Shown here piece by piece: positions 24,001-30,000 of a stretch of 64,000 nucleotides of DNA. The DNA is from Thermodesulfobacteriota bacterium (GTDB lineage Bacteria > Desulfobacterota > Desulfobacteria > Desulfobacterales > SURF-7). Position numbers: made by a program. The DNA is taken from positions 352,001-416,000 of the forward strand of contig JBMORA010000009.1 of assembly GCA_049320885.1 (NCBI GenBank). Reading direction: 5' to 3'. Each line of letters starts with the position of its first letter. The first letter of the stretch is position 1.

Positions 24001-27000
24001 CCATTACGATCATACCGGCGGAATCACCGACGTGTTGGAATGCGCCGGCCACAGCGAGATTTTTTGCCATCCCGGGGTGATGAAACCGCGGTACAGCATT
24101 GTGAACAGGAAGGCGAAGCCGATCCAGATGCCCTGGGAGCAGATGGCGGCCATTGACAAGCTTCCCGCGAATCGTCTTCACTGGGTTTCACAGCCTGTTT
24201 CCATATCCCCGACCGCGGCGTTGACCGGTCCGATCCCCCGCAAAACGGAATTCGAAGACACCGGCGGGCCTTTTTTTCTGGATCCGGACGGCAGGCGCGG
24301 CGATCCCCTGGATGATGATCTCGCCCTGTATATCGTCACAAAGACCGGCCTGATCGTTGTGGTCGGTTGCTGCCACGCCGGCCTGGTGAACACCCTGCAC
24401 CATATCCAGAGCCTGACCAACGGCGCTGCCATACGCGCTGTCATCGGCGGTTTCCATTTATTGAATGCCGACAACCGTCGGTTGGCGGGCACCATCGCCG
24501 CATTGCAGTCCGTAAAACCGGAAAAAATTGTTCCCTGTCACTGCACCGGCGAAAAGGCTGTCATAAAAATTCAGACGGCCTTGGGCGAACGGGTTGCGGT
24601 GGGAGCGGCGGGGATGGTTTTCGAGTTCTGAGAAACAGTCGCGGGCTGTTCAATCCAGGATGACGGTTTGAACGGCCCGGCGGATGTGGGTGACGATTTC
24701 CGAAACCTGCGTAGCGGGTGTCGGATCGGCATATCGTCCTGCCAGGCGGTTGATTTTCGCGGCGGCGTTGGCGGCCACAGCGGTGGGCATTCCCGCATCC
24801 ATGAGGGCCGCGGCAATACCGGTTACCGTGTCGCCGGTTCCGCCGATGGGTTCAAGCGCCGCAACAGACGGGTCATCGATGACGAAGCGAATATCGCCGT
24901 CTTCTGCCACGTAATCCTTTTTCCCCTTCACCAACAGACATTTTGCCGCGTTTTGAAAGCGGTAGGCGCGTGCGATCATTTCAGGTACCTGGTCCTCCAT
25001 ATGCAGAATGAATCCGCGCGTGTAAAACGGGTGCGGGGCCTTCTCATCAGCCAGAAAAGCCAATTCTCCCACATCGGGAGTAAACAGGTGGTAAGCTGAA
25101 GCTTGGCCGCTCATTTTGGCGGCGTACATGAAGCCTGCATCGGCGACGAGACGGGCTCGGGGACACTCTTCCGCAAAAGACAAAAGAACCCGGTTATGCC
25201 AGTCCACATCCGGCTGGAGGTAGTGAAACACAACGACGCCGCCCGGCATCAGGCGTCCGATGTTTTCATCGAGATACCGGTATAACAGACGGCTGCCATC
25301 ACCTAAACCGACATCGCCCGCAAGACAGACCAACGGCATCGGCTTGCCCAGGGTGCGGCAGGCCTGGATGGCCGCGGCTATCAGTGCGGGGGTTCCCCGG
25401 TTGATGCGAAAACTCCTGCCGCTGATGAAGATATGTCCGGCATCCATTTCTGCCGCTCCCATCACCAGCGGGCAGCCCGGTTCCGGGACAGTGCCTACGA
25501 TGAACATTGTCGGACCATTTCTTCGTAGGCCAGCTGCAGGGCGTAGCCACAGAGGGTATGACCGATTTCTTTTGGTTCGGGGGCTTCCCGCAAGGTCTTT
25601 CCCACCAGTTCCCCGGCCAGAAAAGGCACATCCGGACATCCGCCGCCCGAAATATTCACGATGAGCCGTGAGGATTTTTCGATGCAAATTTTCATGTTGG
25701 CGGCGCGGACCATCAGGTAGGCGCCGAAATCGGTGATTTGATACAAATCCACCGGTTTCAACAGCACGTCCGTTACCGGTACGGTTTCCAGGGGGGTGAT
25801 TCCATTTTCGGCAAGCGTCCGAAGAATATTGAGCTTTTCCATCAAGGGGAATTCAATCACCAGATCGCATCCCCGTTGAATTTCCGCCGGCGGCCCCATG
25901 ACCCGGATAAGCCAACCCGCCTTCCGGAGGCCTTTTTCCGCCCGGATGACTTCCGACGTGTTTTCGAACACCAGAATTCCGCGATCCGTCTGTAACCGGT
26001 TTTTTTCAGGTGCGACCGGCCCTTTTTTTTCCTGCTTTTTAAAGGAAAAAAGGGACATGGTCAGCCTTTATGGATCGTCAATCGGTAGCCCTGGTTGTCC
26101 GGTTGCAGATCGGCGACCCGAAACCCCTTACTTGTCGCCGCCCGCGTGACGTTTTCCCTGGAGGTGTCCGTATCCACCAGGATGATAAATTCGGTATCCG
26201 ACCCGGATTGAATGGCATCTAATGTCATGAGCACCGGTTGCGGGCAAGACAAGCCCCTGGCGTCGATTGTGGTCGTCATTTTTCCAGCTCCTTTCTTATT
26301 TTGAGGCATTCCGCATGGAAAAGCCGATAAACAGGCATGTCAGCATGCCGATGATCACCGCCGCCACGCCATGGGGGCCAACCCCTTCGGGCGTGCTGGC
26401 CAACCCGAAATTATGGGAGATGGCAGCTCCCACGATCATGCCGAGCACGAATACCGCCGCATCTCCATCCCCCTCGCCCGCCAGGAAAAGTTGGCGTCCG
26501 GGGCATCCCCCGGCCAAGGCAAAGGCCAGTCCGGCCAGCATCATGCCGGAAAAATTCCAGGCATGCTGGGTGTGAGCCACCGGCTGTCCGATGAATCCCG
26601 GTTTGAATTGTCCGAGCAATACATTTGCGATGAAAGCGGCGGCCACGAGTGCGATCAAGCCGCTGAACAGATGCAGATGACGAAAAAGGAGGAGGTCCCG
26701 CAATGCGCCCATGGTGCAGAACCGGCTGCGCTGGGCCAGAAATCCTATGGTAAGGCCCGCCGCCAGGGAAACCGTCAGGGGAGCGTGCATGGCGCCCGGG
26801 CCCGTGACGCTGTAAAACAGAATCCCGCTGTTGGGCAGCTCTTTGATCCGGGGATAGATCAACAGTAACGCCAGCAACCCCAGTACGATCATCGGCATCA
26901 TCCAGCCTACCGCCGCATGCGTGTTCTGGCTGCGCCCTAGGTTATACCCGTTTTTTAAAAACAGGGTCCCGATCCAGATGCCGAATGTAAGGCCCGCCAG

Positions 27001-30000
27001 GCCGAAAATAGCGTTACCGTCGCCACCGGCCAGGCGCAAGGCCGCCCTCCATGGGCATCCCAGGAAAACGAGAGCCCCCACCATGGCGAGGGCGCCGAGA
27101 ATGAAACGCACAATCGGCGCTGATCCGGCGCGCGGGCGGTATTCCTTGAACAAATAAGCGGCTGCCAGCGAGCCGATGACAAAACCGATGATTTCCGGCC
27201 GGATATATTGCACCACCGCGGCGCGGTGCAGTCCAAGGGCTCCGGCAATGTCCCGTTCAAAACAGGCTACGCATATGCCCATATTGCCCGGATTGCCCCA
27301 TTTCTGCAGTAAAGCCGCCAGAATTCCGATGGCCGCGCCCACGCTGACGATTCCCCAGCGACTGGCAAAAAAGCGTTTGATTGCATCCATGTCGTCTCTC
27401 CTTTGATATCCGAATTTCTCGGCGCAGGTTGTTATGAGCAAAAGTTCATAACATCGACGTCATGGATTTTTCCAATATTTAATATCTATGATCTGTTCCA
27501 TCTTCATCGAAATCTTCTATGATGAAGATCGGATGCAGGTTCGAGCGATGGCGGCGCTGCCCACGGCGCACCCCAGATCGCGGGCAATGACGGCGCATTT
27601 TGCTTTCAGCAGAAAAAAAATGGGTTTATCGCTGTCCGAGAGGGTCTCGTAGTTTCCCTGGCCTTTGGCGATAACAACATCAGCCTCCTGGAAACAGCTT
27701 TGGAACGCTTCCGAGCAGCCGGAAAGGATCGTTCCGGGCACATCCGAACCGTTGTCGATCACGTCGATTATCTTGGTCAGACCGGTATCCACCGCGTCGG
27801 CGAAGGTAGCGTCATTGATAACCGGCCGGCCCCTGACAACATAGGTGACCTTGTGGATGGGAAGCTGTTCGAGGAGCAGCCGGTCGAAAACAATCTCACC
27901 CGTGTTGTCTCCCAGATACAAAATGCGTCGGGCCTGCGCCACCGCTTCCCGCAGCTCCTGCACATTCCCGACCATGGATTCGGCCAATGCCGACTCAATG
28001 GTCTTCTGAATGACCATGTCATCGATTTCGGCGTTCACGCCGAAATCGATGATGTTGCCGGCGATGGCCAGGCGGACGGCGGTTTCAAACCGGTCCCTGG
28101 ACTCATCAACCATGGCCTGGAGGGAGGGATAGAGGGCCAAGGCATGCCGGTTGAAGCGGTCCTTGACTGCCCGGTACGGATCGTCGATACCGGAAACGGT
28201 TCGAATGATGCGATGGATGAGCTGGCCCATGATGGGCGGCGGCCGGCTCAAATCCATCCGGCTGACCGCGGCCAGCACCTCCCGCAGGACCGATTCATGA
28301 ATGCCTTCATCCGACGTTGCAAATCTCACTGCCTCCAACGTCTGGCGGATGAAACAGGGAATGCAGTCGTAATAGGTCTTCATGGCGCCGGTCCTGCTGG
28401 AAGAAAACGTTTTACAGGAGTTTTTCCTGTTTGAGGCGGTTCAGTATTTCGCAGGTGGATTGACTGCGGTCCATGGTATAAAAATGAAGTCCGGGAACGC
28501 CTGCTTTCAGCAGCTCCCGGCATTGTTCGGTGGCAAATTCGATCCCCACATTCTGGACAGCGTCCTTGTTGTCGGCATCCACGGCGTCCAATCGTTGCTG
28601 CAGTTTTTTCGTAATGGACGATCCGCATACGCTGGACAGCATTTGGGTCATTTTCACGCTGTAGACAGGCATAACGCCCGGTACGATCGGCGCCTGCACA
28701 CCCTTCGCCAGGCATTTGTCAACGTACTCATAATAGAAGGCATTGTCATAGAAATACTGGGTGACGACGTAATCGGCGCCGTTGTCCACTTTTTTCTTCA
28801 GGCAGGCGATGTCGTTTTCCAGGCTTTGCGCTTCGATGTGCCCTTCGGGATATCCCGCGCATCCCAGGGTGAAATCATAATGCTTCTTGATAAAAGCGAT
28901 CATGTCCGCGGCGTAGGGAAAACTATGGGGGTGCGGCGTGAATTCGGTTTCCCGGGGCTGGTCCCCGCGGATGACGAAAATGGTTTCAACGCCCAGCTCT
29001 TTGTATTTATCCAAAACGGCCCGGATGTCATCCGGCCCGAGGCCGAAACCGGCGATATAGGCGACGGTGGGCTGTTTCTTATCGATCATCACTTCTTTTA
29101 CGGTCTGATAGGAACCATCCCGGGTGGATCCCCCGGCGCCGAAGGTGACGGACATGTAATCCGGTTGATGAACGGCCAGCTTGTCGATCAGAGCGCCGAA
29201 TGTCGCCGCGGCTTTTTCGTTTCGCGGCGGGAAAAATTCCATTGAAATGACCGGTTTTTTGTTTTCGTACAGCCGGGTAACGCGCATAGGTCTTTTCCTT
29301 TCCGTGCTTCTTTACAGTTGATGTATTATATGGACGGCCTCAGATGCAAGCCGCAACCTAACCGGATAACAAAAAAGTTCCGTCATAGCCGGCATAATCT
29401 TCAATGGTTTTCCGATGAATTGGAACGAGGGCCGCCGGCAGTCGTTCCAGCGGGAAAAAGCGTACATCCGAGCCTTCCCGACCATCGGCGCGGGGTCGGC
29501 CCGTCCATTCACTGACGATGAAGGCCAGGGCAAAACACTGGACTTCGTCTCCGTTTGGGTAAGTTATCTGCTGGTTGGGACCGGAATACAACCCCATGGG
29601 ATGCGCGGTGACTACCGTCAGTCCGGTTTCTTCTAAAACTTCCCGCTCCAGCGCATCGTAGACGGTTTCATTCAGTTCCACCGCCCCGCCGGGAAGGCCC
29701 CACAACGATGAGTCCGTACGGCGCTGAAGCAGAATTTCTGATGGTTGATTCACGATCACCGCCCTTACGCCGGGGACGAAAATGCGCTGAGCGCCGACCA
29801 TGGATCGAATTGTTTGAACGTAACTGGACATGTGGTCATCACGATTATGTTGTTTCATTCACCGGGTCCGGATCATTATCTTTATGGCTGGCCGTATAAT
29901 AAACGTTCGATTTTTTGTAAACTGAAAATACGAGTCCTGCCTGCATCAGTTTGCCGATATATTTCGCGGTCTCATTGCGGTGCAGATCGAATGCCTCCAG

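Follow-up and report, generated by a model that had tools for sequence, protein, structure and literature searches.

The last gene of a selenium-type yedE cassette encodes a predicted nucleotide-dependent enzyme which, as judged from sequence comparisons, belongs to an undescribed ribokinase-fold family that differs from NnrD and is linked to this cassette. The enzyme appears to form an obligatory unit with the product of the gene just upstream, a three-cysteine DUF3343-DUF8182 protein, rather than with the four-gene cassette as a whole. We propose, with a probability of about 0.4, that the two proteins are one two-component module that acts downstream of YedE and TusA, providing SelD with selenium. 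The cassette lies in the window analysed here, a stretch of 64,000 nucleotides from a Thermodesulfobacteriota genome, and comprises the following genes:

26296..27390, minus strand: yedE, putative selenium transporter (YeeE/YedE family), 364 aa; TIGR04112 483 bits (cut-off 200), PF04143
26061..26279, minus strand: tusA/SirA-like sulfur/selenium carrier, 72 aa, CPxP Cys12; PF01206 57 bits
25495..26058, minus strand: long DUF3343 protein (the partner), 187 aa, Cys64 plus Cys141/Cys170; PF11823 residues 27-92, PF26554 (DUF8182) residues 100-187
24650..25507, minus strand: ribokinase-fold nucleotide-dependent enzyme (predicted), undescribed family, 285 aa; PF01256 37.6 bits

The genes are contiguous from 27390 down to 24650, with gaps of 16 and 2 nt followed by a 13-nt overlap between the partner stop and the start of the kinase-fold gene, which confirms the four-gene cassette closed by this gene that a preliminary description had reported. 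YedE clears the selenium-specific model TIGR04112 but not the thiosulfate TsuA models, and SirA/TusA-like and DUF3343 genes lie next to it, as in the selenium-type cassettes described by Lin et al. 2015. The TusA-like protein, whose Cys12 is kept in all 200 locus hits that were aligned, reaches 48 bits with TIGR03527 (cut-off 110) and has no DsrE domain, so it is not a full YedF; the full YedF of this genome lies elsewhere, behind selD. No selenocysteine (in-frame UGA) replaced the conserved cysteines at partner positions 64, 141 and 170, at TusA Cys12 or at the YedE positions checked. A selenoprotein reading of the carrier cysteines was rejected, as the residue was always Cys and never Sec in the locus hits checked. 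A promoter scan did not find a sigma-70-like site, and terminator-like hits were uninformative because most fall inside genes.

The database call for the kinase-fold gene (P0005, 265 aa) begins at Met21 of the 285-aa protein. Since G5 and P8 are conserved, we place the true start 20 codons upstream of that call; an upstream start had been proposed before, at about 18 codons. The RGT, HYxxP, HPxY and GGTGD motifs, previously noted as the protein's own, are indeed conserved in the family: GGTGD was found in 98 and [TML]PDxxE in 97 of 100 sequences. Across 165-167 locus hits, a set that includes duplicates, residues D123, D145, E148, K194, E219, D226 and R254 do not vary. Site features of the ribokinase-like superfamily are present, namely [N/D]xxE, KG and a GxGD anion hole with the catalytic Asp226. 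By their position in the superfamily, D226 is presumably the catalytic base and D145/E148 metal ligands, and we take K194 to be part of the nucleotide/Mg motif. The AF2 model (pLDDT 95.4) has a short N-terminal beta-hairpin insert at residues 15-34, and all its Foldseek and VIA hits are ribokinase-like. The best VIA match was the NnrD domain of TM0922 (Z 20.8, rmsd 3.0, 228 aligned, 16% identity), and pseudouridine kinase (Z 18.7), THI20 (Z 18.6) and PdxK (Z 18.0) were also close. Profile searches against the PDB gave only weak ThiM, NnrD and PdxK matches; single-sequence PDB searches yielded nothing useful for either the kinase or its partner.

With the NnrD/YjeF C-terminal dehydratases (PF01256, TIGR00196; PDB 2ax3, 3rph, 6efx, 3k5w) the protein shares the fold (Z 18.9-20.8) and, in the C-terminal half, the D[A]G/DAD strand, TPxxxE, KG and GxGD. 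Identity is 13-16%. The PF01256 match (gathering score 27) covers residues 112-264 only, and TIGR00196 scores 36.3, against a curated cut-off of 129.85 and 231.8 for the genome's own NnrD. The His of TPHxGE is replaced by the invariant Asp145; GPGLG is absent, and neither TPH (0/100) nor a GPG[LMI]G-type motif (0/100) occurs in the family sequences. This His and the GPGxG motif are presumably the NAD(P)HX contacts of NnrD. The family has invariants that set it apart from NnrD (T39, D65xG, HYxxP, HPxY and E219, besides the hairpin insert), and it has an obligatory three-cysteine partner, which NnrD is not known to need. The NnrE-NnrD from which it had been distinguished earlier is indeed a separate, intact protein (C12:30588-32234, TIGR00196 232 bits), and aligns with it in the C-terminal half only. 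The ThiM/ThiD/PdxK/PsuK/PfkB kinases also have the same fold (Z 16-18.7), ThiM gives weak sequence hits, and PdxK and PfkB carry an anion hole with Asp, as this family does. However, no family cut-off was reached (NF006830 20.8 against 180), the G[TS]GC or TPN motif was found in 0 of 100 sequences, and the gene neighbourhood shows no link to thiamine, B6 or sugar metabolism. For the PfkB carbohydrate kinases, which PF00294 and a lid domain characterise, no PF00294 match was obtained; the model has the short beta insert at residues 15-34, and the HldE kinase domain of the genome aligned over residues 171-250 only, with a probability of 27%.

The partner consists of an N-terminal Se/S-carrier DUF3343 domain, with Cys64, and a C-terminal DUF8182 domain, with Cys141 and Cys170; all three cysteines are invariant in a 49-row alignment. 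In its predicted model (pLDDT 89.7), the DUF8182 domain, compared without being folded alone, matched IscU in VIA at Z 5.8 (rmsd 2.9, 79 aligned) and Z 5.6 (rmsd 2.7, 76 aligned), below the bar of Z 8 for naming a family. The Z 5.6 match is the IscU of an IscS-IscU complex (4eb5). TM values of 0.61-0.69 were obtained with predicted models of TSCPD, DUF2889 and DUF3870, IscU/SufE-fold acceptors than which the DUF8182 domain, itself fused to DUF3343, is shorter. The model weakly suggests a SufE/NifU-like fold; Foldseek gave no match for the partner at E<=0.001.

Among 301 genomes of the phylum, the kinase was found in 81, close to the 23 of 81 given earlier, and DUF8182 in 80, with 79 genomes common to both. 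In the searched genomes the DUF8182 domain was seen only where the kinase is also encoded, and it lies directly upstream in 80 of 82 kinase matches. The pairing is kept across three gene orders, and in one genome (G111) the kinase is lost and the partner frameshifted. Five 50%-cluster representatives are DUF3343-kinase fusions, one of the fusion clusters having 32 members, so the description of the enzyme as stand-alone does not extend to the family. In 80 GTDB kinase loci, a DUF3343-type gene was adjacent in 77 of the 78 eligible, consistent with the earlier 21 of 22, tusA in 72 of 73 and yedE in 71 of 72. Kinase-partner distances are correlated (rho 0.90), which reflects shared descent; we do not count it as a sign of contact. 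Carriers also occur in Nitrospirota and Bacillota, as well as in one of 131 Synergistota genomes; archaeal homologs are known by name from Methanopyrus and Ca. Methanoperedens, and scanning metagenomes with a divergent member gave a single locus.

Seen from the kinase, it is thus a fixed fourth member of the cassette, as had been claimed; seen from yedE it is not, being absent from 56 of 124 TIGR04112 genomes. In other yedE loci, the cassette slot held a TIGR01977 (SclA/Sec-lyase-like) gene in 12 of 40 cases, mostly with a short DUF3343, against 0 of 121 kinase loci. Of the 124 yedE genomes, TIGR01977 was present in 27 of the 68 that carry the kinase and in 45 of the 56 that lack it; 11 had neither. 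Exclusion is only partial at the genome level, as 29 of 81 kinase genomes have TIGR01977 elsewhere, and the gene also occurs in 83 of 164 genomes having neither yedE nor kinase. The two modules are interleaved on the YedE tree, where at least 6 of the 7 changes required for the TIGR01977 label are forced. The only TIGR01977 protein scanned in full scored 399, below the SclA cut-off of 525. SclA/TIGR01977 proteins (E. faecalis EF2568; bioRxiv 10.1101/2020.02.07.939272) take this position in other genomes, between yedE-tusA and DUF3343/selD, but are PLP-dependent and of unrelated fold. The genome studied here has selA, selD-yedF and tRNA-Sec, and no TIGR01977 match. From gene position, the kinase-partner module would be a non-homologous alternative to the TIGR01977 gene plus short DUF3343, and probably provides many anaerobes with a second, energy-dependent route of selenium supply.

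The link to selenium comes from the neighbourhood. The claim that selD often follows the kinase was confirmed: selD was found in 28 of 80 GTDB loci (7 of 21 full-flank loci), and in 14 of 60 it lies downstream at no more than 1.2 kb on the kinase strand. Together with selB, tRNA-Sec and a selenium-type LysR it is a recurrent neighbour; a related LysR was present in 14 of 80 loci, and the one scanned passes LysR_Sec_metab. In our phylum, selD is near-universal (276/301), as had been objected, and its association with the kinase is weak (78 of 81 carriers against 198 of 220 non-carriers, Fisher p 0.10), the three carriers without selD being genomes 80-84% complete. The objection is answered by physical linkage of the cassette to selD in several phyla and by the Nitrospirota, where selD was present in 15 of 15 carriers (background 93/171) and the kinase in 0 of 78 selD-less genomes, although 15/15 overstates independence, since most carriers are small genomes of similar size, probably of one lineage. 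The accessible part of Lin et al. 2015 (PMC5322559) describes DUF3343 proteins of 80-100 aa beside a Sec lyase or YedF. Our cassette resembles that cluster by its TIGR04112 permease, TusA-like carrier, DUF3343 cysteine and linkage to selD and LysR_Se, and differs by the DUF8182 domain with two extra invariant cysteines and by the kinase-fold gene in the Sec-lyase-type slot. The terms ribokinase, YjeF and hydrate do not occur in the main text of that paper, in agreement with the preliminary description, nor do the accessible parts of PMC9312934 and 10.1101/2022.04.13.486033 mention the enzyme. Nothing relevant was found in the openly accessible literature on MJ0011, MJ1337, DUF8182, Desulfovibrio YedE/selenium transposon work or a kinase in connection with YedE and selenium. 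We infer that the enzyme, an unrecognised member of a selenium cassette, handles selenium.

In the module that we propose, YedE would import a small selenium species and TusA Cys12 would take it over, as family membership and the analogy with YeeE/YeeD suggest. The kinase would bind Mg-ATP (or ADP) and use Asp226 to phosphorylate an oxygen on an inorganic or cysteine-bound selenium species, creating a leaving group in the way that NnrD activates a hydroxyl. Cysteines 141 and 170 of DUF8182 would capture the selenium and hand it to DUF3343 Cys64, and from there to SelD. The more specific idea of an ATP-driven, PLP-independent replacement of Sec lyase, in which inorganic or protein-bound selenium rather than an organic alcohol is phosphorylated and loaded selectively on an IscU-like carrier, is tentative. 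It is not obvious why ATP activation should be needed, since thiols react with selenite in its absence, and homologs in Ca. Methanoperedens and on a plasmid of Nostoc, with no selenium context in evidence, count against a selenium module.

Other explanations were weighed against this one. A role in salvage, with the enzyme phosphorylating a hydroxyl of an organic selenium compound (selenonucleoside, selenosugar or Se-heterocycle) before the three-cysteine partner, possibly an Fe-S protein with an open site, strips the selenium, is rather unlikely. Such a reaction would be what the fold does by default, pseudouridine kinase, THI20 and PdxK rank close behind NnrD, and the invariant H95/Y96 and H159-P-x-Y162 could stack a ring. 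Yet YeeE/YedE permeases are known for small anions, and no nucleosidase or sugar-catabolic neighbour recurred among 80 loci. TudS desulfidases, with three cysteines, a [4Fe-4S] cluster and a thionucleotide monophosphate substrate (PMC10611767, accessible part), offer a parallel, but no TudS match was found in the partner, and no TudK kinase precedent was found in that part of the paper. A role for the module in handling sulfur, or both chalcogens without distinction (for example as a thiosulfate/persulfide relay), its proximity to sel genes reflecting shared anaerobic chalcogen metabolism, is unlikely. The carrier residues are never Sec, the accessible part of PMC5322559 recognises no Se-specific DUF3343 subfamily, the kinase is missing from some 70% of the phylum's selD genomes (78/276 have it), and yedE deletion in M. 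maripaludis had no clear selenium-uptake phenotype in the accessible part of PMC11097638. Against this stand the TIGR04112 assignment, the recurrent selenium neighbours and the rise of yedE, tusA and a DUF3343 gene on selenium depletion in M. maripaludis.

Action on selenophosphate (exchange of phosphate with ADP, buffering the donor) or editing of the carrier (ATP-based discrimination of perselenide from persulfide, with an IscU-like domain loaded by housekeeping NifS/IscS) is quite unlikely. It would fit the kinase genes directly before selD (14/60), the 4eb5 match and a NifS-type gene about 3.3 kb from tRNA-Sec in our genome, but that match is below Z 8 and most selD genomes lack the kinase. 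Direct phosphoryl transfer from ATP to selenide is unfavourable, which leaves only the reverse reaction or editing as plausible. A non-catalytic nucleotide sensor or scaffold, gating the YedE-TusA-carrier relay by energy state, would agree with the obligatory partner, the fusions and the lack of an identifiable substrate pocket of a known family; the invariance of Asp226 and D145/E148 makes it very improbable. Least credible is an NnrD paralogue repairing hydrated NAD(P)H, as the databases annotate: the PF01256 score and the best structural matches agree with it, but TIGR00196, the two missing motifs, the half-length alignment and the intact NnrD of the genome do not, and NnrD is not known to require a cysteine partner.

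If the tentative idea of an ATP-driven replacement of Sec lyase is right, the module would also be the high-affinity step so far missing between the dedicated importer of selenium and SelD, in anaerobes of sulfide-rich settings and in some archaea. Roughly a quarter of the genomes sampled from the phylum carry the module; databases list it as NAD(P)H-hydrate dehydratase or sugar kinase. It offers named soluble proteins with predicted catalytic residues, and its exchange with an SclA-like gene suggests that functional comparison by cross-complementation would be simple. The whole cassette is found in Peptoclostridium acidaminophilum (EAL2_RS12795-12815), a cultured selenium model organism, with a convergent selD beside it.

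The cassette lies on the minus strand of the window, its four genes tightly packed and the kinase start overlapping the partner stop by 13 nt:

27390-26296, minus strand: yedE, which passes the selenium-type model TIGR04112 (483 against a cut-off of 200)
26279-26061, minus strand: tusA (PF01206 match)
26058-25495, minus strand: DUF3343-type partner, 187 aa, its PF11823 match confined to residues 27-92
25507-24650, minus strand: ribokinase-fold protein g00922 (the kinase), 285 aa, with a weak PF01256 match (37.6 bits, residues 112-264), far under TIGR00196

The database gene call for the kinase starts at Met21. 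Conservation of G5 and P8 places the true start 20 codons upstream of this call; the preliminary description had the direction right, but not the distance (about 18 codons).

The AlphaFold2 model of the kinase (pLDDT 95.4) has a ribokinase-like fold. It is closest to NnrD proteins (Z 20.8, rmsd 3.0, 228 aligned residues, 16% identity), followed by pseudouridine kinase (18.7), THI20 (18.6) and PdxK (18.0). Fold and nucleotide half are shared with NnrD, DAG, [TML]PDxxE and GGTGD being conserved in 98, 97 and 98 of 100 distinct kinase sequences, but the NnrD motifs TPH and GPG[LMI]G were found in none of the 100. The ThiD/ThiM cysteine motif was likewise absent from all 100; we read these motifs by what they do in other ribokinase-fold families. 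Only residues 141-285 could be aligned to the genome's own NnrD, and the family has invariants of its own (T39, D65, H95, Y96, H159, P160, Y162, E219 and R254). The retained nucleotide motifs, the missing NnrD and ThiM motifs and these invariants mark a separate branch, in which the catalytic base is intact and the substrate side different. The database names NAD(P)H-hydrate dehydratase and sugar kinase received no support from the motif tests. Since an intact NnrE-NnrD is present elsewhere in the source genome and the kinase family lacks the NnrD motifs, the two are distinct, as had been proposed.

The C-terminal half of the partner corresponds to Pfam DUF8182. Among 301 sampled genomes of the same phylum, 81 had the kinase, 80 had DUF8182 and 79 had both, with DUF8182 directly upstream of the kinase in 80 of 82 kinase matches. 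The unpaired cases were a fragment, a contig edge, and one genome in which the kinase was lost and the partner frameshifted. A single locus (L108) among 80 GTDB loci had an intact kinase without partner. The two proteins are fused in five 50%-cluster representatives, all keeping the three partner cysteines and GGTGD; one of these is no singleton, its cluster having 32 members on many contigs. We conclude that the pairing is obligatory. Some cassettes were in decay (loci L211, L212, L144 and L216): genome G267 had in-frame stops in yedE and partner, G111 a deleted kinase and a frameshifted partner, and G016 and G179 kinase frameshifts. A Nostoc carneum plasmid (L112:12461-15888) carries, among NRPS genes, a kinase with a 59-aa DUF8182 remnant, adjoining a transposase-like gene (by eye); this copy is probably a captured fragment.

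Seen from the kinase side, neighbours in eligible GTDB loci were the partner (77/78), tusA (72/73) and yedE (71/72), which bears out the claim that a DUF3343-type gene adjoins the kinase. Three gene orders were found: yedE-tusA-partner-kinase, partner-kinase-split yedE-tusA, and split yedE-tusA-partner-kinase-selD. Splitting of yedE is the reason why TIGR04112 missed 8 of the 13 kinase genomes in which it had no match. Conversely, 56 of the 124 yedE genomes (TIGR04112) had no kinase, so that the kinase is not the fixed member of the yedE cassette it was thought to be. One metagenome contig (L130:1609-9377) holds two cassettes, each in its own gene order, separated by YedF-like, dihydrolipoyl-dehydrogenase-like and GcvH-like genes (by eye). 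A YedE clade apart (L196-L198, L200-L205, L207) has no adjoining tusA, and is accompanied by genes for a phosphonate-type binding protein and for a GeoRSP radical SAM/SPASM protein (TIGR04303, one member scanned).

Forty further yedE loci were examined, 37 hand-picked from the 56 kinase-less yedE genomes and 3 from kinase-list genomes. In 12 of the 40, a TIGR01977 gene stood behind tusA (or yedF), followed in 10 of these by a short DUF3343 gene (73-85 aa), with selD next or near in three of the ten. The TIGR01977 family was named for EF2568, now SclA, which acts on selenocysteine in preference to cysteine (bioRxiv 10.1101/2020.02.07.939272; PMC13188914). The single TIGR01977 protein fully scanned fell below the stricter SclA cut-off. 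With a profile built from the slot proteins, no gene of this type was found inside the cassettes of 121 kinase loci, the sole match being weak and distant (L103). The source genome has no TIGR01977 gene. Across yedE genomes, TIGR01977 was present in 27 of 68 with the kinase versus 45 of 56 without it, and 113 of the 124 had one or the other. Mutual exclusion at genome level is partial: TIGR01977 was carried by 29 of all 81 kinase genomes, and by 83 of the 164 genomes having neither yedE nor kinase. A FastTree phylogeny of 74 YedE proteins requires 7 changes of the TIGR01977 label, of which well-supported branches force at least 6, and 9 changes of the kinase label; the two modules have thus been repeatedly swapped or lost behind the same YedE subfamily.

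Because selD is almost universal in the phylum (276/301 genomes), its presence in 78 of the 81 kinase genomes says little; the three lacking it are 80-84% complete. Physical linkage is informative. The gene selD was found in 28 of 80 kinase loci (7 of the 21 with full 8-kb flanks), and on the same strand within 1.2 kb downstream of the kinase in 14 of 60. Other recurrent neighbours were selB and tRNA-Sec, and a LysR gene was present in 14 of 80 loci, the one scanned passing LysR_Sec_metab. P. acidaminophilum has all four cassette genes, with kinase and partner as EAL2_RS12810/12805, and a convergent selD. In Nitrospirota, 15 of 171 genomes had the kinase, all 15 with selD (93/171 overall); most of these carriers are probably one lineage. 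Homologs by name occur in Methanopyrus, Dehalococcoidales and Ca. Methanoperedens. The source genome has selA, tRNA-Sec and selD-yedF, with an in-frame TGA within selD. About 3.3 kb separate its tRNA-Sec from a NifS-type desulfurase gene (contig C1:315730-320288), and ARAGORN called a putative second tRNA-Sec of 98 nt (C12:2364-2461).

Three cysteines of the partner, C64, C141 and C170, are invariant in an alignment of 49 rows, and UGA was never found at these positions. The DUF8182 half has weak structural similarity to IscU and to other domains of the SufE/NifU type of fold (Z 5.6-5.8; TM 0.61-0.69), a model-based lead rather than a sign of family membership. In the scheme we tentatively favour, at a probability of about 0.4, YedE would import selenium, the kinase would activate a selenium species, either inorganic or bound to cysteine, through phosphoryl transfer, much as in NnrD's phosphorylation-elimination, C141 and C170 would capture the activated selenium, and C64 would pass it on to SelD. 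The pair might instead salvage an organic selenium compound and remove its selenium in a TudS-like manner, which we think rather unlikely. Handling of sulfur or of chalcogens without specificity is somewhat less probable still. That the enzyme acts on selenophosphate, or edits S/Se, would also fit next to selD, and seems unlikely to us. A non-catalytic sensor is improbable, given the conserved catalytic base. NAD(P)HX repair, suggested by the structural match to NnrD, is the least probable reading, given the absent NnrD motifs and the genome's own NnrE-NnrD.

Lin et al. 2015 (PMC5322559) described YedE, YedF, LysR_Se, Sec lyase and a small DUF3343; the cassette here differs by its long DUF3343 and its kinase, neither of which is mentioned in the main text of that paper. 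Term searches of PMC9312934, PMC13188914 and 10.1101/2022.04.13.486033 gave no mention of the kinase, although supplements or subscription journals may hold one, and literature searches for MJ0011, MJ1337 and DUF8182 found no paper. The enzyme-carrier pair is real and conserved, inside a known predicted selenium cassette, and apparently undescribed so far. The pair makes it possible to test how selenium is taken up and reaches SelD, the chemistry being what we infer. In M. maripaludis under selenium depletion, yedE (+5.3 log2), tusA (+4.5) and a DUF3343 gene (+2.3) were induced, and yedE deletion gave no clear selenium-uptake phenotype (PMC11097638); neither a term search nor the portion of the supplement covered turned up a comparable kinase or NnrD-like gene.

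Beside the cassette, a double-cubane-cluster reductase (NF040772, one member scanned) was present in 6 of 80 loci and its activase in 4 (L052, L056, L067, L068, L082, L095, L146). Genes annotated HgdB are induced on selenium depletion in M. maripaludis (PMC11097638) and lie within the Slackia selenium cluster (PMC5322559); reductase and activase could possibly form an ATP-driven reductase for selenium compounds. A 156-aa HAD-like protein with a weak P-type ATPase domain match occurred in 9 of 80 loci (for instance L068:7031-7498), often adjoining selD. A 66-aa Zn-ribbon-like ORF with two CxxC-like motifs, without Pfam or NCBIfam match, occurred in 7 of 80 (for instance L044:1781-1978), directly after the kinase in six.

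Around the cassette, the window contains:

27517-29287, minus strand: ARMT1-like damage-control phosphatase and metF, directly upstream of yedE; neither is a common neighbour in related loci
29845-31671, minus strand: NifU-N, CGGC-domain and radical SAM-HTH trio, upstream of the cassette
22170-24631, plus strand: DUF5320, Mrp/ApbC and metallo-beta-lactamase-fold genes, convergent on the cassette
19282-22033, minus strand: two genes with ChrB domains and one for an MFS transporter, together similar to a chromate-response unit
16740-18977, plus strand, and 33639-35765, minus strand: what we take, by eye, to be a qNor-type nitric oxide reductase and a large multiheme cytochrome c
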